This document shows, piece after piece, positions 19,274 to 31,941 of a DNA stretch of 32,000 nucleotides. Position 1 is the stretch's first letter; every line of letters starts with the position of its first letter. The notes under the pieces were generated by a model. It was not told the origin of the DNA. It was given only the letters and a program-made list of their open reading frames with translations, and searched no databases. The stretch is from Pyrodictium occultum (GTDB taxonomy: Archaea > Thermoproteota > Thermoprotei_A > Sulfolobales > Pyrodictiaceae). The stretch lies in contig NZ_LNTB01000002.1 in NCBI RefSeq assembly GCF_001462395.1, forward strand, positions 60,001 through 92,000, in the 5' to 3' direction. The position numbers and the translations under genes were made by a program.

Positions 19274-19515
19274 CGCCCGAGCACCTCGGCCACCCTGAAC
19301 CCCACGGCTATGGTGAAGGCTGCGAGGAGCGCGGCGTGGAGCCAGTCCCTACCCCTCCTCGCAGGCCTGAGCACAGCCTTGACCACGGTGTACTCCAGCG
19401 TGTACATCGCTATGTATGCGTCCAGCCTCTCCTCCCCCAGGGCCCAGAGCGTGGACACGGTTAGGGCCACCATGATGGCGAGCAGTGTGTTGGCTAGGCG
19501 GCTCCTATCCACCAT
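19270..19515 (-). CDS. Small two-TM membrane protein, unknown function
   Basis: 81 aa with two hydrophobic helices. 4-nt overlap with the downstream gene start and a 6-nt gap to the upstream gene. Confidence 0.5.
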   Translation of the reverse strand: MVDRSRLANTLLAIMVALTVSTLWALGEERLDAYIAMYTLEYTVVKAVLRPARRGRDWLHAALLAAFTIAVGFRVAEVLGR

Positions 19516-19521
19516 GAGGCT

Positions 19522-20232
19522 CTACCCCTCGGGCCTCCCGACGACTATCCTCCTGGCCCGGGGCCCGGCCCTCCGGTCGGCCTCCAGCAGGGCGCTCCCC
19601 CATAGCAGGGCTGCGGCGGAGGCGGCCACCACCCCGTATATGCTCCCCACGGTGTCCTCGAGGCTCGCCGGAGCCGCCACGCGCTCCCCGTGGACCTCGA
19701 CCACCAGCCTGTCCCCCTGGTCGACGCAGTCCAGCCAGTCGGCTAGGCCTAGGAGGTCTGTGAGCAGGTACCCCACCGCCGCGCACGGCTCCGTGAAGCC
19801 CTCCACCATGCTCCCCGAGACGGGCGAGCGGAGGACCAGGACCGGCCTCCCCCCGCAAACCGTTATCGGCGTGGCCGGGGGCCCGCCGGGGCCGGGGCAG
19901 CCGGCCGCCCCGACGTAGATGTAGACCGTGCCGCCGCTGCTCCGGTACAGGCTCGGCCCCCGGGCCCCGAGGGCCTCCAGGAGCCCGGCTATGTTCGAGA
20001 ACGCGTTCTCGAGGAGCAGGAGGGCCTCCCTCACCCCGGTGCAGGCCTCGGGGGTGAGGTACATGGATGCGCCCACCACCGCCAGGCCCAGCCAGAGGGC
20101 CGTGAGGGGCCCGGGGCCTATGAGCAGGTAGGTGGCCGCCGCGAGCACCGCCGCCGAGACTGCTACGGCTAGCCCAGCTGCCTGGTAGGCGGCCATCGCC
20201 GGGCCTCCCTGCCCCACCGGGGCCCGCGGCAC
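19522..20232 (-). CDS. Membrane protein with a Cys-containing soluble domain, unknown function (first gene of the long minus-strand string)
   Basis: 236 aa from the GTG at 20232. An ATG at 20196 (MAAYQAAGLAV..) is an equally plausible start. Two N-terminal TMs, then a domain with five Cys. Confidence 0.5.
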   Translation of the reverse strand: MPRAPVGQGGPAMAAYQAAGLAVAVSAAVLAAATYLLIGPGPLTALWLGLAVVGASMYLTPEACTGVREALLLLENAFSNIAGLLEALGARGPSLYRSSGGTVYIYVGAAGCPGPGGPPATPITVCGGRPVLVLRSPVSGSMVEGFTEPCAAVGYLLTDLLGLADWLDCVDQGDRLVVEVHGERVAAPASLEDTVGSIYGVVAASAAALLWGSALLEADRRAGPRARRIVVGRPEG

Positions 20233-20238
20233 CTAGCA

Positions 20239-20248
20239 TCTTAAACCC
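20239..20248. promoter_or_regulatory. Candidate shared TATA box (TCTTAAACCC) in the divergent spacer
   Basis: The only AT-rich element between the minus-strand string (start 20232/20196) and the GT2 gene (start 20340). Confidence 0.3.
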
Positions 20249-20339
20249 TCGCATACCGTAGGTGCTAGCCGCGCGGCCTGGAGGCTCCAGGCTCCCTCTC
20301 CCGGGGCCGCGGGGGCTTGCAGGGGTCTTGAGGGCCGGC

Positions 20340-21473
20340 ATGAGGGGCCTGACGGTACTGATACCCGTCCTCGACGAGGCCGAGGCTATAGGCAGGGTTA
20401 TAGACGAGGTCGTCTCGGCGGGCGTCCCCAGGGAGAACATCCTGGTCGTGGACGGGGGCAGCAGGGACGGGACGGTCGAGATAGCCAGGGCCCGCGGGGT
20501 GAGGGTGGTGAGGCAGGAGGGCCGCGGGAAGGCTATGGCTGTCAAGACGGGGCTGCGCCACGTCTCAACCCCCTACGTCCTCGTCATGGACGGGGACTAC
20601 ACGTACCCCGCGGAGTATATACCCGTCCTCTACCGGGTCCTGGTCGAGGGCGGCTACGACCTAGTGATAGGCGCCCGCGTGCCCGAGCGGGGCGCGCAGA
20701 GCCTCGTCTACCGGGTGGGGAACGCGCTGCTCACAAGGCTCTTCAACCTCCTCTTCGGCACCAGGCTTAGCGACGTGCTGAGCGGCATGTACGCGGCCCG
20801 GACCAGGAGGCTCCGGGAGCTGGGCTTCGAGATGCAGGGGTTCAGCATAGAGTCCGAGATAGCCGCCCACGTGGCCTCCACCACGGGGAGGATAGCGGAG
20901 GTCCCCATCAGGTACAGGAGGAGGCTTGGGAGGAAGAAGCTCCGGGTCCTCCACGGCCTGTCCATAGCCAGGGACATGGTCCGGCTCGCGTGGAGGTACA
21001 ACCCCGCCTTCCTCATATTCCTGCTAGGCGGCCTCCTCCTCGCCCCGGGGCTCGGGCTGGGGGGCTGGGTCGCCTACATGTACCTGGCCCACGGGGTCAA
21101 GCACTACGTGAAGGGGCTGGCAGCGGTGGTGCTCTCCTCCACGGGCCTCGCCAGCCTCCTCCTCGCAGTGATGGCCCTCTACCTTAAGAGGGCCGAGATG
21201 AGGCTCCAGAGGAGGCTGGAGGAGCTCGCCGAGAGGCTCAACCGCCTACTGGAAGAGCGCGTCGATGAGGGGGGAGAGGGGCCTGGCGAGCCTCCCAGCC
21301 CTCTCCCCGAGCAGCCCCCGGGCCAGGTCGCGGAGGTCGCGGCGCTCCAGGACCCCCAGCCGGCCGTAGGCGGGGTAGCTGAGCGCGAGGAGGGCGGCGC
21401 CCGCGAGCCAGTGGAGCCCCAGGATCCTGGCCAGGGCAGCCAGCGCCGCGGGCACGGCGGCAGCCCCGCCTAG
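20340..21473 (+). CDS. GT2 glycosyltransferase, dolichyl-phosphate hexose synthase (Dpm1/AglD-like) with C-terminal TM helices
   Basis: MRGLTVLIPVLDEAEAIGRVIDEV..ILVVDGGSRDGTVEIA..VLVMDGDYTYP (D-x-D), then two TMs. Start placed at the ATG at 20340, not the GTG at 20262. The last ~75 codons are low-complexity and antisense to the flippase gene. Confidence 0.8.
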   Translation: MRGLTVLIPVLDEAEAIGRVIDEVVSAGVPRENILVVDGGSRDGTVEIARARGVRVVRQEGRGKAMAVKTGLRHVSTPYVLVMDGDYTYPAEYIPVLYRVLVEGGYDLVIGARVPERGAQSLVYRVGNALLTRLFNLLFGTRLSDVLSGMYAARTRRLRELGFEMQGFSIESEIAAHVASTTGRIAEVPIRYRRRLGRKKLRVLHGLSIARDMVRLAWRYNPAFLIFLLGGLLLAPGLGLGGWVAYMYLAHGVKHYVKGLAAVVLSSTGLASLLLAVMALYLKRAEMRLQRRLEELAERLNRLLEERVDEGGEGPGEPPSPLPEQPPGQVAEVAALQDPQPAVGGVAEREEGGAREPVEPQDPGQGSQRRGHGGSPA

Positions 21474-22745
21474 CAGCCTCCAGTCGAGCCGCAGGCCCAG
21501 GCCCCCGGCCACGGCCGCGCTGTAGGCCAGCCCGGCGTAGGAGCCCAGGGCGTACGCCACGGCCGCCCCGAGGCCGTGGAGCCTGGGGACGAGGACGAGG
21601 TAGAGGAGCAGCCTGGGCAGGCTGGCGGCGAGGCCCTGGGCGAGCACCAGGCGGTACCTCCCATGGGCGTAGGCCAGGCTCGACACGGTCGCGTTGACCG
21701 CGTCCGGCAGGAAGCCCGTGAGGAGGACGGCCAGCTCAGCCGAGGCGGAGGCGTAGCCCCTGCCCAGGAGGCCCAGGACCAGCCCGGGGTAGGCGGCGGC
21801 GTAGAACGCCACGGGGGCGGTGACGGCCAGGCTCACCCTCAGGGCCCTCCAGGCGGCCCCACCCCTCCCCCCGGCCATGCCGCTGAGCACCGGGAGGAGG
21901 AGGCTCAGCACGCTCATACCGAGCCCCGTAGCGAGGCCCGCGGCGGCGAAGGCCACGTAGTAGTAGCCCGTCTCCACGGCCCCGCTGCTCCCGTAGACGA
22001 GTAGCACGCCCAGCCACTGGCCGGCGAGGACCACGACGCCCGGGGCCCAGGAGGCCAGGCCGGCGGCCAGGACCCCCGCCACCGCGGCCGCGTCCAGGCC
22101 GATCCAGGCCCCGTAGCGCCTAGCCAGGTAGGGGAGCCCCACCAGGAGCACCGCGGCGGGGAGGAGGGCGTAGCCCGCCACGACCCCGGGGAGCCCGGCC
22201 CCGAGGGCCACGAGCCCCGCGCCCAGGGCCAGCTTGGAGAGGTTGCCCAGCAGCCTGGAGGCGAGGACCAGGTCGCTGCGGAGGAGGGCGAGCAGGGCAG
22301 CCTCCACCACCCCGGCCACGCCCAGCGCCGCCAGGGCGCCGGAGAGGAGGAGCATCCGGGGCCCGAGGCCCCCCAGCCCCCGGCCCGCGAGCCCCAGGAG
22401 GGCCAGGGCGGAGCCGGCGGCCAGGTAGACCAGGGCCATAGCGTAGAGCGTCGACCAGAAGACCCTCCGGAGGCAGGCCTCGTCCCCAGCCCCCAGGCAC
22501 CTGCCCAGCCGGTGCTGGAGCCCGGCGCCCGCACCGAGCCCCGCAGCCCCCGAGACGAGGCCGGCGAGCCCAACCACGGCCGAGGCCCTGCCCAGGAGCC
22601 CGGGGCCGGCGAGCCTCGAGACCACGAGCCAGTAGAGGAAGCCGCCGAGAGCGTTAACCAGCCTAGAGGCGTAGAGCCAAAGCCCCCCGCGCACAAGCCT
22701 GGAGAGGCTCAAGCCCGCCCAGAACCCCGCAGGAGAGAAGGGCAC
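21246..22745 (-). CDS. Polysaccharide/oligosaccharide flippase (Wzx-like, MOP superfamily)
   Basis: 499 aa with a GTG start and roughly 12-14 hydrophobic segments, G/A/L-rich. Call rests on architecture and glycosylation context. An AT-rich box lies 19-26 nt upstream of the start, consistent with a leaderless transcript. Confidence 0.7.
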   Translation of the reverse strand: MPFSPAGFWAGLSLSRLVRGGLWLYASRLVNALGGFLYWLVVSRLAGPGLLGRASAVVGLAGLVSGAAGLGAGAGLQHRLGRCLGAGDEACLRRVFWSTLYAMALVYLAAGSALALLGLAGRGLGGLGPRMLLLSGALAALGVAGVVEAALLALLRSDLVLASRLLGNLSKLALGAGLVALGAGLPGVVAGYALLPAAVLLVGLPYLARRYGAWIGLDAAAVAGVLAAGLASWAPGVVVLAGQWLGVLLVYGSSGAVETGYYYVAFAAAGLATGLGMSVLSLLLPVLSGMAGGRGGAAWRALRVSLAVTAPVAFYAAAYPGLVLGLLGRGYASASAELAVLLTGFLPDAVNATVSSLAYAHGRYRLVLAQGLAASLPRLLLYLVLVPRLHGLGAAVAYALGSYAGLAYSAAVAGGLGLRLDWRLLGGAAAVPAALAALARILGLHWLAGAALLALSYPAYGRLGVLERRDLRDLARGLLGERAGRLARPLSPLIDALFQ

Positions 22746-22763
22746 CAGGCCCCGGGAGGGAGG

Positions 22764-22773
22764 CTTTTAACCC
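22764..22773. promoter_or_regulatory. Candidate TATA box (CTTTTAACCC) in the divergent spacer
   Basis: The only AT-rich element between the flippase start (22745) and the 22817 gene. Confidence 0.35.
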
Positions 22774-22816
22774 CCGCCGCCCCACGCCGCCCGCACAGGC
22801 CGGAGGGGCCCCGGGA

Positions 22817-23248
22817 GTGCCGCTACTCGCGGAGCTGGCGAGCCGCCTAGACCAGGGCCCCGGTAGCCGGGCCCTCGAGAAGGCGAGGGAAGCGGTAGCC
22901 AGGATACTCCTCCCAGAGAGGATCACGGGGCCCCTCATCCAGAAGTACATCCGGAAAGCAATACTCAACCACACCTGGCACGCCCTACCCCCCGAGACCA
23001 GGGCGCTCATGCTCCTCGCCCGCCGCCTCCCGAGAATAAAATCCCCCACCCTAGCATCCATCCTGAAGCAGGCCTTCCTGAGAATAGAGCTCGCAACCAC
23101 CCGGGGCCAAGCCCTCCTCTACGGAGCACTCATAGCCATGAAGAAGGCGGCCCAGGACCTCCACAGGCTACTCCACAACGCCAGCAAGCTACTCATACTA
23201 GGACTATCCTACCTCAACAACCCGCCGATATACAGGATATACGGCTAG
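22817..23248 (+). CDS. Hypothetical helical protein, no family recognised
   Basis: 143-aa ORF with a GTG start and plausible, non-low-complexity composition (..ITGPLIQKYIRKAILNHTWHALPPETRALMLLARRLP..). Confidence 0.45.
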   Translation: MPLLAELASRLDQGPGSRALEKAREAVARILLPERITGPLIQKYIRKAILNHTWHALPPETRALMLLARRLPRIKSPTLASILKQAFLRIELATTRGQALLYGALIAMKKAAQDLHRLLHNASKLLILGLSYLNNPPIYRIYG

Positions 23249-23300
23249 AGCCCCCCGGGAGCCGTGAAGGCCCACAGCCCAGAGACGGCAGGCACCGGGG

Positions 23301-23431
23301 CAGCGGACACAGCCCTGCTAGAAGCCGCCGAGCCCCACACAGACGAGCATAACACGGCAGCACGGACTACGACATGCAGGAAACAGTGCCAGACACGCCA
23401 GCAGTGGACACAGCCCTGCTAGAAGCCGCCG
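23301..23431 (+). repeat. 30-bp direct repeat (29/30 identical) with 101-bp offset, bracketing the GT2 start codon
   Basis: cag[c/t]ggacacagccctgctagaagccgccg at 23301-23330 and 23402-23431. The core 26 bp is perfect. Confidence 0.9.
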
Positions 23432-24528
23432 GGGCAGCCCTCGCAGCCATACACTTCGGGGTGCCCCTAGCCTACTACTTGTACCTCAGGAGGGCCTGGC
23501 TCCGCAGGCCCTGGGGGCTGAGGAGGGACCCCGGGTACACGCCCAGGGTGGTAGTGGTAGTGCCGACCTACAACGAGGCAGACCTCATAGAGCGTAAGCT
23601 CGACGACATCTACAGGCAGGACTACCCCCGCGAAAAGCTCGAAGTAGTGGTAGTGGACTCAGCCAGCACCGACGGCACCCCGGAGAAGGCTAGAAGGTGG
23701 GCCTCCAAGCACCCAGACCTAAAGGTCAGGCTCGTAGAGGAGCCCGCCAGGAGAGGCAAGGCGCACGCGCTAAACACAGCGCTAAAACACATCCCGCCAG
23801 ACGCCGAGGTCGTAATCCTAACCGACGCAGACTCGTTCTGGCCCCAGAGAGACACGGTAAGGAGGGCCGTAGCCTACCTGGCAGACCCCACCGTGGGCGC
23901 CGTCTCCTGCCTCAAGAAGCCGGCGGGCCAGGGCCCCGGGGGCGTCGAGGAGGCCTACAGGAGCCTCTACAACCAGGTAAGGCTCGCAGAGAGCAAAGCC
24001 CACTCAACACCAATATTCCACGGGGAGCTAGCAGCCTACAGGAAGAGCCTCCTAGAAGAGATAGGAGGATTCCCGGAAGACCTCGGCGCAGACGACAGCC
24101 ACACAGCAACCCTAATAGCGCTCAAAGGCCGCAGGGCGATAACACCCGAAGACGTATGGTGCACAGAGCTAGTGCCGAGAAAAGGCTACACCAGGTGGAG
24201 GATCCGCAGAGCGCAACACCTAACCCAACACTTCCAGAAAATCCTGAAAACAAGCCACAAAACACCAAGCCAGCTCAAGAGGATACTAGCAGTAGAGGCA
24301 TACCTACACCTAGCCAACCCATGGCTACTACCAGCCGCCGCCGCACTACTAGCACTAGCCGCCGCCCACAAAAGCCCCTCAGCCATCATACTACTAGCCC
24401 TAGCCGCCGCGCTACTAGCGTACAAGCCGTACAGGACGTGGATAACAACACAACTATACCTCACAGCAGCAATGATAAGAAACCTACACACAAAGGAGAT
24501 AACATGGGAAAAGCAGACCAAACAGTAA
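23374..24528 (+). CDS. GT2 family glycosyltransferase with C-terminal TM helices
   Basis: VVVVPTYNEADLIERKLDDIYRQDYP..VVVVDSASTDGT..VILTDADSFW (D-x-D), followed by an RW-containing segment (GYTRWRIRRAQH) and hydrophobic C-terminal helices. Confidence 0.85.
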   Translation: MQETVPDTPAVDTALLEAAGAALAAIHFGVPLAYYLYLRRAWLRRPWGLRRDPGYTPRVVVVVPTYNEADLIERKLDDIYRQDYPREKLEVVVVDSASTDGTPEKARRWASKHPDLKVRLVEEPARRGKAHALNTALKHIPPDAEVVILTDADSFWPQRDTVRRAVAYLADPTVGAVSCLKKPAGQGPGGVEEAYRSLYNQVRLAESKAHSTPIFHGELAAYRKSLLEEIGGFPEDLGADDSHTATLIALKGRRAITPEDVWCTELVPRKGYTRWRIRRAQHLTQHFQKILKTSHKTPSQLKRILAVEAYLHLANPWLLPAAAALLALAAAHKSPSAIILLALAAALLAYKPYRTWITTQLYLTAAMIRNLHTKEITWEKQTKQ

Positions 24529-24548
24529 AAGGGCGGGTTCCAGAACCC

Positions 24549-25619
24549 ATGAAGATACTCTACATAACTCCTAGATACTATCCGCATATAGGTGGTGTGG
24601 AGTATGTAGTGAAGTCTGTCGCTGAGAGGCTGGTTAGATGGGGGCATAAAGTTGCTGTGTTCTCTGGAGAACCCAATATAGAGATTCCTAAGGAAGATAA
24701 TGTCAATAATGTACATGTAATTAGGTGGCCTGTATGGAGCCCCTCTAATGCTTATCATGTACCGAGAAAAAAGACCTTGTTTGAAAGAATGTTGGAAAAT
24801 CTGCTGGATGATATAGATGTACTTCATATTCACAACATACATAGTGTTTTAACATATTATGCATGGAAAATTTGGAGACGAAGAAAAAACTGCAAGTTGA
24901 TTTTAACGCCTTATTATCATGGAACAGGTCATACAGTAATTAGGAGAATGTTGTGGATCGGATGGAGAAGAATAATTAGAAGGATAATAAGAGATGCATA
25001 TAGGGTTCATACAGTATCGCAATTAGAAGCTTCATTGATATCAAGAGATTTCCAGGTGCCGGCTGTACCGATCGAAAACGGGGTTGAAGAGAAAGTTAAA
25101 AGGCTCAATTGGAAACCTAGCAATTATGTTCTTTATGCAGGTAGGATTGAGAAATATAAAAATATTCATAGGCTAGCTAAAATAATATTGATGCTTAATA
25201 AGAAATATGGATATGATCTTAGCTTTATGGTTATTGGTGAAGGCCCATATAGAGAAAAGCTTAAAAAATATTTAGATAATATAGGAATCAATTATGTGAT
25301 CTCACACTTTAAACCATATGAGGAATACCTCAAAATACTTTCGCAAGCATACTTCTTTGGATTGCTATCTGAAAAGGAATCTTATCCTCAGAGTGTGAAT
25401 GAGGCCAATGCCATTGGAGTACCGGTGGTTATAGCAAAACCTTGGGGAGCAAATTTTAATAAAAGAAGGAGAACATTAATAATTGATCCAGAAAGCAATA
25501 GTGAGGTTTTAGCCATGAAAATAAGCGAATTCTTAAAACAAGTAGCTAATGAGCCTAGATCTAATGTCCCTACATGGGATGAGATCGCTAAAATATACAT
25601 TCAAAAACTGTATAGCTAG
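24549..25619 (+). CDS. GT4 family glycosyltransferase
   Basis: The true start is MKILYITPRYYPHIGGVEYVV at 24549. The upstream 852 nt of track ORF 23697-25619 is an alternative frame of the GT2 gene. The E-x7-E motif is EKESYPQSVNEA. Confidence 0.85.
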   Translation: MKILYITPRYYPHIGGVEYVVKSVAERLVRWGHKVAVFSGEPNIEIPKEDNVNNVHVIRWPVWSPSNAYHVPRKKTLFERMLENLLDDIDVLHIHNIHSVLTYYAWKIWRRRKNCKLILTPYYHGTGHTVIRRMLWIGWRRIIRRIIRDAYRVHTVSQLEASLISRDFQVPAVPIENGVEEKVKRLNWKPSNYVLYAGRIEKYKNIHRLAKIILMLNKKYGYDLSFMVIGEGPYREKLKKYLDNIGINYVISHFKPYEEYLKILSQAYFFGLLSEKESYPQSVNEANAIGVPVVIAKPWGANFNKRRRTLIIDPESNSEVLAMKISEFLKQVANEPRSNVPTWDEIAKIYIQKLYS

Positions 25620-25630: not shown

Positions 25631-26578
25631 ATGAGGGGAAAAGCATTAATCACTGGTGGTGCGGGCTTCATCGGTAGCCACTTAGTTGATAGACTCCTCA
25701 AAGAGGGGTGGGCTGTAAGAGTAGTCGATAATTTTAGCTCGGGCAGGTATAGTAATCTAGCTCATCATAGAGACAATCCTATGTTGGAAATAATTAGAGG
25801 AGACCTCAAGGATGCTGAGACAAGTATGAGGGTCGTAGAGGGGGTTGACGTCGTTTTCCACTATGCTGCCAATCCTGAAGTTCGCGTGAGCACTACAAAC
25901 CCCGATATACATTTCAATGAGAATGTAGTGGCCACTTTTAACCTCCTAGAAGCTATGAGGAAGAAAGATATTAGGAAGCTCGTCTTTGCATCCTCTAGCA
26001 GCGTCTATGGTGAGCCTGAGAAAATACCGGTTAGTGAAAACGCACCGATAAAACCAGTATCCGTTTATGGGGCTAGTAAAGCTGCATGCGAGTCGCTAAT
26101 ACATGCATATAGTAAGCTATATGGGATAAAATCCGTTGTTCTTAGATACGCAAATGTCGTAGGACCTAGGCTTAGACACGGCATCATATACGATATAATT
26201 CAGAAACTAAGGAAAAATCCGAGAAGGCTAGAAGTCTTAGGCGATGGAACACAGGTTAGGAGCTACATCTATATCACAGATGCCATCGAGGCCACAATGC
26301 TTACCTTCAAAAACATGAATGATTATTTTGAAGTATACAATATAGGAAACGAGGACTGGATCACGGTAGACGAGGTAGTAAATGTAATTATAAAAGTTAT
26401 GGGGCTAAGTAATGTAGAGATAATCCATAAGCCTATAGCCCATGGAGTAGGATGGCCAGGTGATGTGAAAAGAATAGCGCTTAGTATTGAGAAGCTGAAA
26501 AGCTTAGGATTTAAACCAAGAATGAATAGTATAGAATCTGTGAAGGAGGCGGCCAAGCATGTCGCAAATGAACCCTAA
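25631..26578 (+). CDS. NAD-dependent epimerase/dehydratase (UDP-sugar 4-epimerase-like SDR), intact
   Basis: ITGGAGFIGSHL Rossmann motif, ASSSSVYG, YGASK (YxxxK), LRYANVVGPR. 315 aa, uninterrupted. Confidence 0.9.
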   Translation: MRGKALITGGAGFIGSHLVDRLLKEGWAVRVVDNFSSGRYSNLAHHRDNPMLEIIRGDLKDAETSMRVVEGVDVVFHYAANPEVRVSTTNPDIHFNENVVATFNLLEAMRKKDIRKLVFASSSSVYGEPEKIPVSENAPIKPVSVYGASKAACESLIHAYSKLYGIKSVVLRYANVVGPRLRHGIIYDIIQKLRKNPRRLEVLGDGTQVRSYIYITDAIEATMLTFKNMNDYFEVYNIGNEDWITVDEVVNVIIKVMGLSNVEIIHKPIAHGVGWPGDVKRIALSIEKLKSLGFKPRMNSIESVKEAAKHVANEP

Positions 26579-27254
26579 AGTATCAGCCATAAACTCTATT
26601 CTTAGCCGGTTAAGACTGGCTCGTGACTCAAAGCTTTTAGACATAGGTTGTGGCGACGGTAGTTTAACTATCCTTATTGCTAATAAGCTTAAAGTAAGTG
26701 AAATATATTGTATCGATGTAGACGAAAACGCATTAAGTATAGCTAATAAAAAGGGTATAATTACTTTCAAGCTTGACATAAGCAGAGATGATCTTCCTTT
26801 TCCAGAAAATACTTTTGATCTATGCCTTATGCTTGACGTGATAGAACATCTTGAAAACCCAGATCATGCACTTAGAGAAGCTTATAGAGTCCTAAAAAGA
26901 GGGGGATACTTACTGATCACAACTCCGAACATGGCTTCATGGTATAATCGTTTACTACTACTTCTCGGAAAACCTATCCTAGGCATTGACTTATCTAAAG
27001 AGTTTAGGTACAGGTACCCTCTTGGTGTAACACAGGTTATATCTGGACACCTAAGGCTTTACACCCTAGATGCACTTAGGAAGATGCTCTTTTATCACGG
27101 ATTTAGAGTAAAGTATGAAGCCGGATATCCACAGGTCTTCTCAAAAACTCAGGTAAAGGGCTTCATACGCCTGGTTAGGCTTCTAGATGCATCTATCGCG
27201 CGCATCAGCAAGACCTGGGCGGCTAACCTATTAGTGTTAGCTGTTAAGAGCTGA
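26559..27254 (+). CDS. Class I SAM-dependent methyltransferase
   Basis: LLDIGCGDGSLT (motif I), LDVIEHLENPDHALREAYRVLKRGGYLLITTPN. 20-nt overlap with the epimerase gene. Confidence 0.85.
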   Translation: MSQMNPKVSAINSILSRLRLARDSKLLDIGCGDGSLTILIANKLKVSEIYCIDVDENALSIANKKGIITFKLDISRDDLPFPENTFDLCLMLDVIEHLENPDHALREAYRVLKRGGYLLITTPNMASWYNRLLLLLGKPILGIDLSKEFRYRYPLGVTQVISGHLRLYTLDALRKMLFYHGFRVKYEAGYPQVFSKTQVKGFIRLVRLLDASIARISKTWAANLLVLAVKS

Positions 27255-27255
27255 C

Positions 27256-29013
27256 ATGTCGGTATTATCACTACTCCAAACACCACTAGTTCTATACACA
27301 GTTATCCTGACCATTACTTGGTTCTCCCTATTGGTGATTTCAGAGATCGCCCCCATAAAACCTAGTCTCAGCCCGAAAACTAGTAACAGACTAATGCATT
27401 CAATTTTTATAATTTACATTTTTATAACAATATTTTTCATCAAATTAAATTTAGTCTTGTATCCATATTTACATGCGATTATGATCGCACTCATTCTCTT
27501 ACTCATACTAGGATCAATGCAGCATAATCCAAAGTCTTTGCTCTTGGTAGCCCTCTCTACAGCTATAACGCCCATAATAGTCATGACATCTACAAAGCAC
27601 CCGCTTCCACTAGGTGATGACGCACGCTTCATTGGGTTCGCCCAAGCCATCTATAGAGATGGGAGATGGATACCGTTCAAATACCAGGAAAACACGTACT
27701 ATCAGCCATTCCATCTAATACCTTTCCTCGAATATATTCTAGCAGTATTGCTAGGCCTCAACTTAAAAAACATTGAAGCATACTATCTCCTCCTAAAATT
27801 TAGCCTCTGGCTCACTTATATGATCTCCACTTACCTAGTTATAAAGAACTTAAGTAATGATTACTCTAAGTCATTAGTAGGTATACTGCTTCTATCTATA
27901 ACTCCCCCAATCGCTCTAACCCAGGTAGTTCACCAAGCTTATGCGATAGTGCTTTTCCTGATAACAGCCTCAGTATTAGTGAAGGAAATAAGGGTTAGGC
28001 AGAGCTTAAACACACTGTTCCTAGTTATAATAGTATTATGGATTGCTGGAATAATTGCTCATGCAACCTATACTGTGATGTTTCTAGCATTCATTTTACC
28101 CCTCTTCTTAATAGAAAGGGAGGGGGTTTCTAAGAAAAACATTGCATTGCTCTCAGCAACACTAGTATCAATTAGCATCATTTATTGGACATACCTATAC
28201 ATGCTTGACGAGATTGTACGATCAACAATAAGTGCTACGACAAGACTCATAGATTTACTAATAGGGAGAACACCGTTCTCCCCCTTCCATGGAACAGCAA
28301 AACCCTGGTACACGTCATCTACATCAACATTTTTCATAGCCTGGGCCTTTGTTCCCTCCATAGTAGCCTCATACATACTCCTTCTCCTTTCAAAAATAAT
28401 ATTTAAACATTGGAAATACTCTTGGAGTTTCATGGAACTGTTAGGTTTTCTAGGATTAAGCGGAACAGCCGTAAACTATATCTTACGCGCTCTCTCCACT
28501 TTTGGCGGCAGGTACTTCTACTGGCTATACATACTAATGATCCCGCTGGCAACTATGGTAGTAAAGAAAGTATCAAGAAGCCCACTCAGTCTATTACCCT
28601 CCATAATCCTGATCTCCACGGCTGCGTTTTACGGCATACAGGATCCAACAATGGCTGCTAACACTTATGGAAACTATATTGGCTGGGCAGACAGAACCAG
28701 CTGGCATATAGCCCTAGAGCTACAGCCATACCTTGGCCACAGAGCATCCAAATGGATCGATCCAAGACTGTCAGCACCACTAAGCTCCACAGCTCCGCTA
28801 CCAGCAGGTAATGGGAGAATCAACTATCAGCAAAAGGTAGCAATAATAGGTGTTGATAAGGTAGGATTGAAAGGCGCCTCAAAGGACCCACGTAATGTAG
28901 ACTGGTTTATAAGAAATTTCAACGTAGAACCACATAACATCATGAATAAGCTAGACGAATTTAGTGTAATTCTAAACATCGACAAATATATCGGGATATG
29001 GGGAAACCCTTGA
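27256..29013 (+). CDS. Polytopic membrane protein (candidate glycan polymerase or GT-C-like enzyme; function unknown)
   Basis: 585 aa with a dozen or more hydrophobic segments by eye. An early loop reads HPLPLGDDARFIGFAQAIYRDGRW. The C-terminal ~130 aa are hydrophilic. The gene starts 1 nt after the methyltransferase stop. Confidence 0.75.
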   Translation: MSVLSLLQTPLVLYTVILTITWFSLLVISEIAPIKPSLSPKTSNRLMHSIFIIYIFITIFFIKLNLVLYPYLHAIMIALILLLILGSMQHNPKSLLLVALSTAITPIIVMTSTKHPLPLGDDARFIGFAQAIYRDGRWIPFKYQENTYYQPFHLIPFLEYILAVLLGLNLKNIEAYYLLLKFSLWLTYMISTYLVIKNLSNDYSKSLVGILLLSITPPIALTQVVHQAYAIVLFLITASVLVKEIRVRQSLNTLFLVIIVLWIAGIIAHATYTVMFLAFILPLFLIEREGVSKKNIALLSATLVSISIIYWTYLYMLDEIVRSTISATTRLIDLLIGRTPFSPFHGTAKPWYTSSTSTFFIAWAFVPSIVASYILLLLSKIIFKHWKYSWSFMELLGFLGLSGTAVNYILRALSTFGGRYFYWLYILMIPLATMVVKKVSRSPLSLLPSIILISTAAFYGIQDPTMAANTYGNYIGWADRTSWHIALELQPYLGHRASKWIDPRLSAPLSSTAPLPAGNGRINYQQKVAIIGVDKVGLKGASKDPRNVDWFIRNFNVEPHNIMNKLDEFSVILNIDKYIGIWGNP

Positions 29014-30122
29014 AGATTCTTTTCCAAACAATAGGTGTTTTAATACAATATAATTGGGCTTTACCATACTATTTGAGTAGAGAGGACGTTAAAATTACTC
29101 TCATAACGAATATGTTTTCCTACTTTATGGGCGGGTATTATTACCACTTTAAAGCACTTAATAAGCTAACACCGCTTTTCACGGGCTTCGGGTTACCTTA
29201 TACCCAGCAATACGACAAAAATATTACCAGTAACATTCCAGTAGGTAGGCTTAGTAGAGGATCTGATGTAATCCATCTTAATGATTCAAAAAATCCTCTT
29301 ACGAAAAGACTGTTAAATGTAGATAAACCTAAGCTTTTCTTCCTTCATGGATCGCTAGATATAATAAATCTAGCTAATCCGCCTAAAGAATTAGAGGAAA
29401 TAAGATCTAAAGTTGATGCGTTCGTGGTTGCAAGCAATCATGCCGCCTATACTGTTAGGAGAGTGCTCGGGTTCACGCCGATAGTTATACATCACGGCAT
29501 AGATACTATGATATTCAACCCCTTCAATATCACTAAGCAGAGAGCGAGAGAAAAACTGTCAATACCATTGAATAAAAGGGTTATATTATAGGTCGCCCGG
29601 ATAAGCCCTGAGAAAAACCTCCAGATGGCCATCAAAGCCCTCCCACATGTGGTTAGTGAGGATAAAGATGTTCTACTGGTAGTTAAAGGGAGAACAGTAG
29701 ATAGAAAGTATTTGGGTTTCATTCTCAAGCTGATTAAGAAGCTAAATGTGAGTAAATATGTAAGATTTGATTTCAAATGGAGCCCCAACGTGACTATGGT
29801 CTATTATTATTATCGGGCTGCAGATGTTTATGTACATACATCCTTGTCCGAAGCTTTTGGCTCCCTAACACTCTTAGAAGCTATGGCTTCAGGGACGCCA
29901 GTAGTAGCAAATAACGCTTCAAGCATCCCTGAAGCCGTTGGTAATGCTGGCCTACTAGTAAACTCAGAGGAAGAACTAGCTGAAAAGATTCTAGAAATAC
30001 TGCATGATGATAGCCTAAGACGCAAACTATCTAGAGAAGGCTTTAGAAGAGTTATCGAAAATTTTTCGTTAAAAATAACTGCTAAGAAATATCTACAACT
30101 ATATAGAAAATTGATGGGTTAA
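28998..30122 (+). pseudogene. GT4 glycosyltransferase interrupted by a single in-frame TAG (29589-29591)
   Basis: Track ORFs 28998-29591 and 29625-30122 are in the same frame. Reading through gives ..LNKRVIL*VARISPEKNLQMAIKALP.., the conserved ilyvGRl.peKg junction between the two GT-B halves. The downstream part carries the E-x7-E motif SEAFGSLTLLEAMA. Confidence 0.75.
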
Positions 30123-30140
30123 AAAGGTGTAAGCAAGGAC

Positions 30141-30653
30141 GTGGTGCTAGTTAGCATAGTAATATTAAACTACAATTGTAGTTTAATATTACATTGTGAA
30201 GAGTACTTGAACAGATTGCTTGGAAGTTGCTCTATATTAACTACTAGAGGACATGCTTTTGCTGTTCTTATACGGAGGGAGACAGTTATAGATTGGAAAC
30301 CACGACATGATCTTTCAGCACTTGAGACCTTCAGCCTTGCACAACATATATTATCTAAGGGATACCTATGGATAGAGCTTTTTAAACCCTGTTGTATTCA
30401 TCTAAAGGAGCTAAAATATGGAGCAGGTATAAGCCGTTATTTTAGACAAGGTCTTTGGGAAGGTGCAGGGGCTAGACTTGTAGGAATCAAGAAAAGACAT
30501 ATGCTTGAGGAAGTTGTTGCTAGATTATTAGGAGGGGTCTTAACCGCTTTAATTACTCATGATGTAAAACATTTAGCTAATAATACAGCTTTAAGACTAG
30601 GGCTACTTCTAGGTTATCTTGTACCTTATAAATTCAGAGTCTGGCGTAGATGA
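30141..30653 (+). pseudogene. GT2 glycosyltransferase remnant lacking the central D-x-D catalytic core
   Basis: It starts VVLVSIVILNYN (GT2 N-terminal motif) and jumps within about 25 residues to late-GT2-like segments (GHAFAVLIRRETV, DLSALETFSLAQHILSKGY..CCIHL). About 100 residues of a normal GT2 are missing. Confidence 0.5.
30159..30192. repeat. Perfect 34-bp palindrome
   Basis: gtaatattaaactacaa|ttgtagtttaatattac. All 17 base pairs verified position by position. Centred on caattg. Confidence 0.95.
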
Positions 30654-30735
30654 AATGTTTTGTGTCACAGCGTTGTTCGGAAATAAAAATTCCAGTTTAT
30701 TAAACTAAGACAGCGTATTTAGTGAAAAGTCCAAG

Positions 30736-31941
30736 TTGAAAATACTTATTATCTCAGAGCCCTTTTGGCCTAAGGGTAGCGGAGGTCCTCTAGCCACTTA
30801 TCTTATAACTAGGATTCTAGCAAGGAATAGAGACTTTAATATAACTGTTGTTATTGGCACTGAGAAATCGGCTAAGATAAGAAACGTTGAATTCATTGTG
30901 GATCCTATGCTTAGAGCTTCAAATAAGGTAAAGTTGTTACTAAGACTTACTAATCCTGTGGTAAGGCATAAATATGAGAAGCTTATAAAAAAATTCGATA
31001 TATTGTATATTCCATCATACTCCCCCTGTGGTTATCCTCTAATACCTATTGCTAAGAGGCTTGGGAAGAAGGTGGTTGTTCACCTCCACGACTACCAGCC
31101 CTTCTCCTACAACTCCGTCATACCGGCAGGCCGCCACGGTAGTGTTTTGAATGGTGTCAGCTACGAGGCCCGGTACGAGGTTTACGAGCATGGCAGCGTT
31201 GGGAGGGCTGTCCTGGGATCCCTGGCGACCCCTCTCATAGGTCTTTACAGGCTGTGGGTTAGACAGGCGGATGCAGTCGTATGCGTCTCAAGGAGGCAGG
31301 CGGAAATAGTGGCTGAGATAGCGCCAGAGCTTAGGGGCAGGATCAGGGTCGTATACAACCCCCTCCCAGACGTCCCCCCAACGGAGAAGAGGCTTGGAGA
31401 CCCCGCCTTCCTATATCTAGGCGGTGACAGCTACATTAAGGGGTTCCATGTTCTCCTGGGCGCTTCCCGGAAAATCCTGGAGCATTATCCCAATGTAGAA
31501 TTCCTGCTAGCCGGGAGATTCAGGGATTCAAGCAGGCTCCTCGTCGAGAAGCTGAACAGAAGGTTTAATGAAGCATATAGGGTGCTAGGCTACCTGAAGC
31601 ATGAAGATATTGTAAGGCTTCACGGAGAGAGCTACGCCCTCCTCTTCCCATCAGTAGTCGAGGAGCCCTCGCCATACGCTGTCCTCGAATCCATGCTGGC
31701 CGGGACGATACCAATAGCTTCGAGGGTGGGCGGGGTCCCCGAGATAGTTGAGGGTACACCCGCCGAGAGAATGCTCTTCACGCCAGGCGATGCAGGCGAG
31801 CTAGTGGACCGTATCGAACACGTTTTATCCTTCTCCAAGGAGCAGCTAGTCGATATGGGGTTTAAGCTGAGGGAGTCTGTCACGAGGAAGTTTAATAACG
31901 AAAGAATTAAGCGAGAGCTGATGAAAGTGTTTACTATATAA
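30736..31941 (+). CDS. GT4 family glycosyltransferase, compositionally mosaic
   Basis: TTG start. MKILIISEPFWPKGSGGPLATY.., HLHD, FLYLGGDSYIKG, and the E-x7-E motif EEPSPYAVLESM. 401 aa. A TTTATTAAA box at 30696-30704 lies ~35 nt upstream. Confidence 0.85.
   Translation: MKILIISEPFWPKGSGGPLATYLITRILARNRDFNITVVIGTEKSAKIRNVEFIVDPMLRASNKVKLLLRLTNPVVRHKYEKLIKKFDILYIPSYSPCGYPLIPIAKRLGKKVVVHLHDYQPFSYNSVIPAGRHGSVLNGVSYEARYEVYEHGSVGRAVLGSLATPLIGLYRLWVRQADAVVCVSRRQAEIVAEIAPELRGRIRVVYNPLPDVPPTEKRLGDPAFLYLGGDSYIKGFHVLLGASRKILEHYPNVEFLLAGRFRDSSRLLVEKLNRRFNEAYRVLGYLKHEDIVRLHGESYALLFPSVVEEPSPYAVLESMLAGTIPIASRVGGVPEIVEGTPAERMLFTPGDAGELVDRIEHVLSFSKEQLVDMGFKLRESVTRKFNNERIKRELMKVFTI

Follow-up and report, generated by a model that had tools for sequence, protein, structure and literature searches.

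A perfect 34-bp palindrome near a microhomology deletion in a decaying glycosylation cluster of Pyrodictium occultum

Mutations associated with quasipalindromes are reportedly covered by the Ripley model and by work of the Lovett laboratory in E. coli. Spacerless palindromic extension of a DNA flank is known from the P-nucleotide additions of V(D)J recombination and from hAT-type excision footprints. Deletions between short direct repeats, attributed to slipped mispairing or MMEJ, are exemplified by the classic lacI deletion spectra. For template-switch mutations, a four-point model (TSM) has been described by Löytynoja and co-workers (PMC8794818, PMC7202029, PMC8604942, PMC13100816), and template switching, either intra- or inter-strand, creates or extends perfect inverted repeats (PMC8794818, PMC8604942, PMC13100816, PMC7202029). 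Surface-glycan islands, in turn, are known from bacterial O-antigen and capsule loci and from the archaeal N-glycosylation (agl) loci. The locus described here touches on all of these systems.

Within a stretch of 32,000 nucleotides of Pyrodictium occultum (in the following, the window), an open reading frame of 170 codons with a GTG start (ORF170, 30141–30653) contains a perfect palindrome of 34 bp (Table 1). Judged from the sequence, this palindrome appears best explained as an 18-nt in-frame inverted duplication (CSLILH) seeded at ACAATTGT, which is a mutation of the template-switch type. We consider it probable that the palindrome is a functionless-looking scar within a decaying glycosylation cluster, and that three separate lesions made ORF170. 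The mutational processes involved are known ones in a new instance, and no new mechanism or function is implied.

Table 1. Coordinates of the features discussed, given as positions in the 32-kb window.
Feature	Position	Strand	Remarks
GT2	23374–24528		
GT4	~24588–25619		island gene
Epimerase	25631–26578		island gene
Methyltransferase	26559–27254		island gene
585-aa polytopic protein, no family match	27256–29013		island gene
GT4a	28998–30122	+	in-frame TAG at 29589–29591 where homologues have Trp
5′ remnant of LNYN-type GT2 (GT2x)	30141–30239	+	33 codons, 6 of them palindrome-derived; gives ORF170 its GTG start
Perfect spacerless palindrome, 17+17, 34 bp	30159–30192	.	sequence GTAATATTAAACTACAA followed by TTGTAGTTTAATATTAC
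Left arm	30159–30175	+	native coding sequence of the GT2x remnant, codons V7–N12, VILNYN
Right arm	30176–30192	+	apparent inverted copy of the left arm; with one further base, the 18-nt in-frame surplus, CSLILH
ACAATTGT, 8-bp palindrome, centre of the present palindrome	30172–30179	.	putative pre-existing seed of the strand switch, from the reconstructed precursor
Deletion junction, single kept copy of (G/A)CTACT	30240–30245	+	window without the 923 nt that L080 has
3′ part of MPTWNSN-type GT2 (GT2y), codons T146–R282 and stop	30240–30653	+	equals P0134 residues 146–282; catalytic PF00535 part absent
48-nt indel relative to L080 (window = shorter allele)	30710–30711	.	GT2y–GT4b intergenic, upstream of GT4b; L080 1472–1519
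GT4b	30736–31941		downstream of ORF170

A preliminary description of this DNA had reported a flawless 17+17 palindrome, the left arm of which codes for the GT2 N-terminal motif and the right arm of which is the reverse complement of that coding sequence, read as CSLILH. All of this is confirmed: the arms are reverse complementary at 17 of 17 positions, and both lie in frame within ORF170 (left (V)ILNY(N), right CSLILH). The symmetry ends sharply, the bases at 30158 and 30193 both being A, with no further pairing. The runner-up among the perfect palindromes of the window has arms of only 9 nt, and the longest arms found in 586 kb of related loci measure 11 nt, apart from the copy of the same palindrome in the sibling allele L080 (see below). 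When the low-GC island of 6.6 kb was simulated 1000 times with a first-order Markov model, arms never exceeded 13 nt, and analytically 8e-7 such palindromes are expected by chance per island, or 4e-6 per window. Hence, the 34-bp palindrome is not explained by chance. A search for the palindrome or its half-site elsewhere, as had been suggested, returned the L080 copy only: the window holds no second copy of the 17-nt half-site, even allowing 3 mismatches, no exact copy is present in 79 of the 81 related loci, and no similar palindrome occurs among about 70 homologous clusters.

ORF170 is a chimera of two GT2 types and not one internally deleted GT2 gene; 33 of its codons derive from GT2x and 137 from GT2y. 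Its N-terminus, LVSIVILNYN, agrees at 9 of 10 positions with LVSIVVLNYN, the start of GT2 genes of about 347 aa (LVSIVVLNYNGKHHLKTCLDSLL...). Many of these clusters contain such a gene of the LNYN type at a distance of a few kb, and in a Metallosphaera MAG a GT2x relative of the LNWNG type occupies the slot between GT4a and GT4b. The remainder of ORF170 belongs elsewhere. An exhaustive HMMER search returned 56 homologues, typically of 270–300 aa, which align to ORF170 only from about residue 33–35 (ORF170 ~35–170 corresponding to homologue ~159–294); the best of them is 48% identical, which is too distant for defining breakpoints at the nucleotide level. Scans for related loci yielded 4 and 72 of them, with identities of no more than 61%. 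The full-length GT2y relatives taken from contigs begin with IDV[VI]MPTWNSNxxYF in 41 of 41 distinct cases and match PF00535 over residues ~5–135, and an HMM built from these 41 sequences aligns ORF170 solely from T34, leaving residues 1–33 unaligned. A word-indexed search of 5.8 billion proteins with ORF170 as query returned ORF170 itself as the sole entry.

Neither Pfam nor NCBIfam searches with ORF170 gave a match, the gathering score of PF00535 not being reached, because the catalytic part has been lost; the intact orthologue introduced below and other homologues score 26–58 bits against PF00535 over residues 5–135, FxDSDV included. The earlier statement that the ORF is devoid of the GT2 catalytic core is thus borne out. 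Other parts of that description have to be revised. It had GT2 homology resume immediately after the palindrome, with about 100 residues missing, and it assigned the N-terminal motif to the gene that had lost its core. Instead, homology resumes at T34 (nt 30240), 48 nt later, 145 codons of GT2y are missing, and the motif is a remnant of a different GT2, namely GT2x. A candidate homology directly after the palindrome (CEEYLNRLL resembling EVLKRGL) was dropped, given that the HMM leaves residues 1–33 unaligned and that L080 provides the exact junction. For the annotation this implies a correction, as the ORF deposited as a protein is the product of a chimeric pseudogene.

GT2y itself is a GT2 family of about 290 aa with a near-invariant MPTWNSN start, and is widespread in hot-spring metagenomes (P0002–P0056, L001–L076). 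Its C-terminal ~140 residues, with the motifs DWxPP, LSAxE, QHI and QGLWEGA, lie outside every Pfam model.

The 90%-identity cluster of ORF170 holds one other protein, P0134, of 282 aa and with the start MEIDVVMPTWNSN, which equals ORF170 from TTRG (T34 of ORF170, T146 of P0134) to the end. It is encoded on a contig of 1889 nt from the Logan assembly of ERR15087784 (L080), in which GT2y is intact. Positions 1–83 of L080 correspond to window positions 30163–30245 with 82 of 83 bases identical, the sole mismatch being G versus A at 30240, and positions 1001–1889 correspond to 30240–31080 (841 nt) with no mismatch and one gap of 48 nt. Overall, the alleles differ by 1 SNP in about 920 aligned nt, and the stretch between palindrome and junction (30193–30239) is collinear in both. 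The motif CTACT is present in L080 at 79–83 and again at 1002–1006; the window keeps one copy at 30241–30245, without filler and 48 nt downstream of the right arm of the palindrome. The comparison demonstrates that the 923 nt were lost from the window by an ordinary microhomology-mediated deletion between CTACT direct repeats. As in other deletions of this kind, the undeleted allele has two copies of the repeat, the deleted allele has one, and nothing is inserted; the present site differs in that one base beside the repeat is not the same in the two alleles (G/A at 30240). The ends of the 48-nt indel further downstream (30710/30711) display no microhomology.

The missing 923 nt hold the rest of the GT2x remnant, what is left of the 3′ part of a dead FkbM methyltransferase gene, with an in-frame TGA and a frameshift in L080, and codons 1–145 of GT2y, which include the catalytic PF00535 part. 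In L080, the frame of the GT2x remnant continues as ...SILATAKHGLKVIAIKPILFPL, with a stop at L080 position 137. Since 923 equals 3n+2, the loss joins the frame of the GT2x remnant to that of GT2y, and it is by this chance that an ORF of 170 codons exists.

The contig L080 starts with TATTAAACTACAA, followed by TTGTAGTTTAATATTAC and ATTGTG..., which is the palindrome from its base 5 onward and then the same 53 nt as in the window. It covers 30 nt of the palindrome, bases 1–4 of the left arm and everything upstream lying outside the contig. Because L080 combines the palindrome sequence with an intact GT2y, the palindrome is older than the deletion and is not its mark; the comparison of the alleles shows the deletion to be the later event, confined to the lineage of the window. 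Striking as it is, the palindrome is not the signature of the neighbouring deletion. The point at which L080 begins is informative too. Its first 31-mer consists of palindrome bases 5–34 plus A, and within a perfect palindrome of 34 bp the 31-mers at offsets 0 and 3 are mutual reverse complements, so that a palindrome of at least 32 bp must break a k=31 contig at the start of L080. This supports the full-length palindrome in an independent data set. For ERR15087784, a left-hand contig ending in ...GTAATATTAAACTACAATTGTAGTTTAATAT at the palindrome is predicted.

These results change the picture given by the preliminary description, in which the palindrome sat exactly at the deletion point and the loss was not an ordinary deletion. 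Alignment to intact GT2 homologues moves the deletion endpoint from the palindrome centre to 30240–30245, 48 nt downstream, where the 5-nt direct repeat accounts for an ordinary deletion, and L080 has the palindrome sequence without the deletion. The proposed footprint of fold-back or template-switch repair is retained in part: it provides the best explanation for the palindrome itself, but L080 contradicts it as a footprint of the deletion.

As the left arm encodes the conserved VILNYN motif, the right arm is presumably the newcomer. Compared to proteins of the GT2x type, the GT2x remnant has six surplus residues between NYN and the next helix. Every deletion of 1–10 residues at each position was scored against a GT2x-type HMM. 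Among 260 variants of the window sequence, removal of codons 13–18 (CSLILH) performed best and raised the score from 13.5 to 22.1 bits; among 371 variants of the longer remnant derived from L080, excision of CSLILH was again best (12.3 to 20.7 bits). The gain is modest (~7–9 bits), and any six-codon excision within codons 13–25 scores within 2 bits of it; by score, the surplus is better defined in length (6 codons) than in position. A test chimera scored against PF00535 gave 102.7 bits with the CSLILH-excised N-terminus and 95.9 bits with the actual one, a difference of 6.8 bits, the controls being 86.4 bits with no N-terminus and 90.8–101.1 bits with four shuffles.

We infer a precursor that would read ...AACTACAATTGTGAAGAG..., corresponding to ...GTA ATA TTA AAC TAC AAT TGT GAA GAG... 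(VILNYNCEE). This reconstructed sequence already includes the 8-bp palindrome ACAATTGT. The present sequence is obtained from this precursor by a single inverted copying of 17 nt followed by a return at 30175. The return junction is devoid of clean microhomology; a return primed by TAC predicts 19 nt, as against the 18 nt observed. For a precursor allele the k-mer TTAAACTACAATTGTGAAGAGTACTTG is predicted, and an intact GT2x would, under the reconstruction, not be expected to read NYNCSLILHCEEY natively in the absence of palindromic DNA. No allele without the 18-nt surplus was found among the 5.8 billion proteins (searched with a doubled 54-aa query of the reconstructed N-terminus), and none is present in 79 of the 81 related loci.

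This data may suggest the following order of events. A GT2x gene adjoining GT4a would initially have been reduced to a short 5′ remnant. Within this remnant, synthesis may then have switched strands at ACAATTGT, copied 13–17 nt of the opposite strand and returned, leaving 18 additional nt in frame; the copy would amount to 17 nt or, equivalently, to 13 new nt and a re-copy of 5 nt (ATTGT). By this step the 8-bp palindrome would have become a perfect spacerless one of 34 bp. Later, in the lineage of the window, the 923 nt between the CTACT copies were lost, which fused two frames into the chimeric ORF. The central 4–6 bases of a palindrome are unable to pair within one strand (PMC7999016). A product without spacer is thus more readily explained by an inter-strand switch or by a hairpin-capped end than by a snap-back within one strand.

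The palindrome shares several properties with template-switch mutations: the new bases are the exact reverse complement of adjacent sequence, a short inverted repeat would have been lengthened to a long perfect one in a single step, and the change affects coding DNA, altering several codons at once. It differs from them in being a pure insertion of 18 nt without spacer, where the described cases involve mismatch correction in a looped stem, and also in that the precursor is a reconstructed one and the host an archaeon. We found no report of a template-switch mutation in archaea in the literature searched. The locus is likely to be a natural example of template-switch mutation in an archaeon.

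Several other explanations have to be weighed against a template switch. Opening of a hairpin-capped break would yield the same product: a break between ACAA and TTGT might have been capped, nicked 17 nt from the tip and rejoined with 1 nt of fill-in, either in the course of break repair or upon excision of an element. Spacerless perfect symmetry is what the opening of a covalently closed hairpin results in, 17 nt plus 1 nt gives the 18-nt surplus, and the extension of a flank into a spacerless palindrome resembles P-nucleotide additions. Typical P additions are far shorter than 17 nt, however (usually 1–4 nt), and to our knowledge no enzyme of archaea produces hairpins on flanking DNA. The site shows neither an element remnant nor a target-site duplication exceeding 1 nt, and the half-site is not repeated elsewhere in the window, nor among 79 of the 81 related loci. 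A footprint of transposon excision is not recognizable by these measures, given that 1 nt is duplicated in the hairpin representation and that the central palindrome by itself gives rise to the repeat ATTGT. When Mre11/Sae2 are limiting, palindrome formation is driven by short inverted repeats close to breaks (PMC7999016), which counts in favour of this route; we nevertheless regard it as unlikely. A different proposal concerns the consequences of the palindrome: once formed as a scar, it may have acted as an obstacle to replication, or fragile site, and provoked the 923-nt microhomology deletion. The order of events and the distance of 48 nt would fit, the palindrome being the older lesion, and two rare lesions so close to each other could be mechanistically linked rather than independent. 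Deletions stimulated by palindromes usually remove the palindrome, whereas the present one was not part of the lost interval and is still complete. Forks stall at perfect spacerless palindromes, and rearrangements are stimulated by them (PMC7999016), but 34 bp is short for strong instability. Dead DNA tolerates any lesion, and the plainest explanation for the proximity of palindrome and deletion is that both arose in DNA which was already dead, so that their clustering needs no causal link. This proposal, too, appears improbable to us. We give very little weight to the most far-reaching version, by which the locus would present either a hairpin-capped end, as an archaeal counterpart of long P-nucleotides left by an unrecognised nuclease or mobile element, or a fragile site that triggered the 923-nt deletion. 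If either were true, the locus would document palindrome biology as it occurs naturally in a thermophilic archaeon.

A selected function of the palindrome, be it as a dyad binding site, as a symmetric TATA-like promoter or as an RNA hairpin at the 5′ end of the ORF, is highly improbable. RNA of the palindrome is predicted to fold strongly (−33.5 kcal/mol, z = −5.2), which is a trivial consequence of the palindrome, and both arms contain TTTAATA, which we take to resemble an archaeal TATA box. The element is intact in two alleles; however, these are nearly identical (1 SNP in ~920 nt), which makes conservation uninformative. The sequence is unique in the window and in 79 of the 81 related loci, nothing similar occurs in about 70 homologous clusters, no Rfam covariance model matches at E≤1 across 29000–31200, and the DNA around the element is dead, with a nonsense-mutated GT4 on one side and gene remnants on the other. 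Nothing suggests a function. Even less credible is one fold-back, hairpin or template-switch repair event that produced the palindrome at the junction and removed the GT2 core at the same time. Palindrome and junction are merely 48 nt apart within an island of 6.6 kb, and MMBIR/FoSTeS models allow for small templated inversions left close to breakpoints by replicative repair. Against this, the palindrome sequence in L080 is accompanied by an intact GT2y and no deletion, the junction is the 5-nt direct repeat and not the palindrome, and the intervening 30193–30239 is collinear with L080. Of all explanations we give least credence to an artefact of assembly or amplification. Palindromes and inverted chimeras are classic artefacts, and the evidence here consists of assembled contigs rather than reads. 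On the other hand, the same 30 nt of palindrome with flank are found in an independent Logan contig, from another run and from another allele (distinguished by the 923-nt and 48-nt indels), L080 ends where a true palindrome of at least 32 bp must break a k=31 assembly, and an inverted copy of 17 nt alone would require two chimeric joints 17 nt apart.

GC content in the window is 60–74% up to ~24 kb, followed by an island of ~38% GC at ~24.5–31.05 kb. As in surface-glycan islands, genes for GT2, GT4, an epimerase, a methyltransferase and a polytopic membrane protein are clustered, at ~38% GC in a genome of 65–72% GC, and at this site a sibling strain with 99.4% identity carries another low-GC cluster, as known from hypervariable glycan islands. 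Genes are arranged alike, as membrane protein – GT4a – (FkbM methyltransferase) – GT2 – GT4b, on contigs of MAGs and metagenomes from Sulfolobales, Bathyarchaeia, Metallosphaera and other sources, and the homologues of the island genes stem from Sulfolobales, Bathyarchaeia, Thermofilaceae and similar groups. What sets the copy described here apart from known glycan islands is its visible decay, evident from a nonsense codon, from gene remnants and from a fusion ORF. In GT4a, VIL(stop)VARISPEKN is read where homologues have VILWVGRISPEKN and IILWVARIGPEKN (TGG>TAG, the Trp being shared by all homologues), which marks it, on the sequence, as an inactivated gene, i.e., a pseudogene; neither half of GT4a is present in the protein collection, and the repaired (Trp) version is likewise absent from it. 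We conclude that the island is a low-GC, hypervariable, horizontally exchanged and decaying glycosylation cluster. It offers a snapshot of an eroding surface-glycan island in two alleles, one with intact GT2y and the other shortened by 923 nt at a 5-nt repeat; a nonsense codon, remnants of genes and the one-step mutation to a long palindrome lie nearby in the same island.

Variability between close strains is illustrated by another Logan contig (L081, from DRR667394), which corresponds to window 19292–24730. It is 99.4% identical over 19292–23550, next carries an insertion of 5.7 kb that resembles a defence island (an AAA_15/AAA_21 ATPase together with DUF4276, PIN and TPR proteins), and continues with GT2 at 88.8% identity and then a wholly different low-GC glycan cluster. 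These differences indicate that the glycosylation locus is hypervariable between close strains. The right boundary of the island is abrupt and lies inside GT4b, where GC3 rises from ~0.3 to ~0.75 near 31030–31060 (31000–31150), and on the left the composition changes gradually over the end of the GT2 gene (24050–24800). Both boundaries look like recombination breakpoints inside conserved glycosyltransferase genes. Clusters of the Bathyarchaeia type contain ORFs of 110–127 aa (L002 5883–6215, L010 4395–4775) that combine an FkbM-like N-terminus with a GT4 C-terminus and represent a further fusion remnant, from which we gather that erosion of this kind is common in such clusters. The 585-aa polytopic protein has homologues (P0058–P0133) of 35–61% identity beside GT4a in many hot-spring archaeal contigs, and this position suggests a glycan polymerase or transferase.

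Some minor observations concern repeats in and around the locus. An imperfect inverted repeat (10 of 12 positions, 30148–30159 and 30232–30243) brackets the palindrome and the GT2x remnant, and a near-repeat, ATATTAA(A)CTAC, is found at 30162–30173 and 30233–30243. Such weak repeats near the junction were set aside as a basis of the deletion, being probably chance similarity of AT-rich sequence, and L080 explains the junction. A MoxR protein shares 48% identity with a MoxR of a Metallosphaera MAG. In the high-GC part of the window, a perfect palindrome of 18 bp, TCGAGAACGCGTTCTCGA, lies at 19995–20012, about 250 nt upstream of an AglJ-like gene (20262–21473). The latter palindrome is also present in L081 (704–721), in a region that is 99.4% identical anyway.
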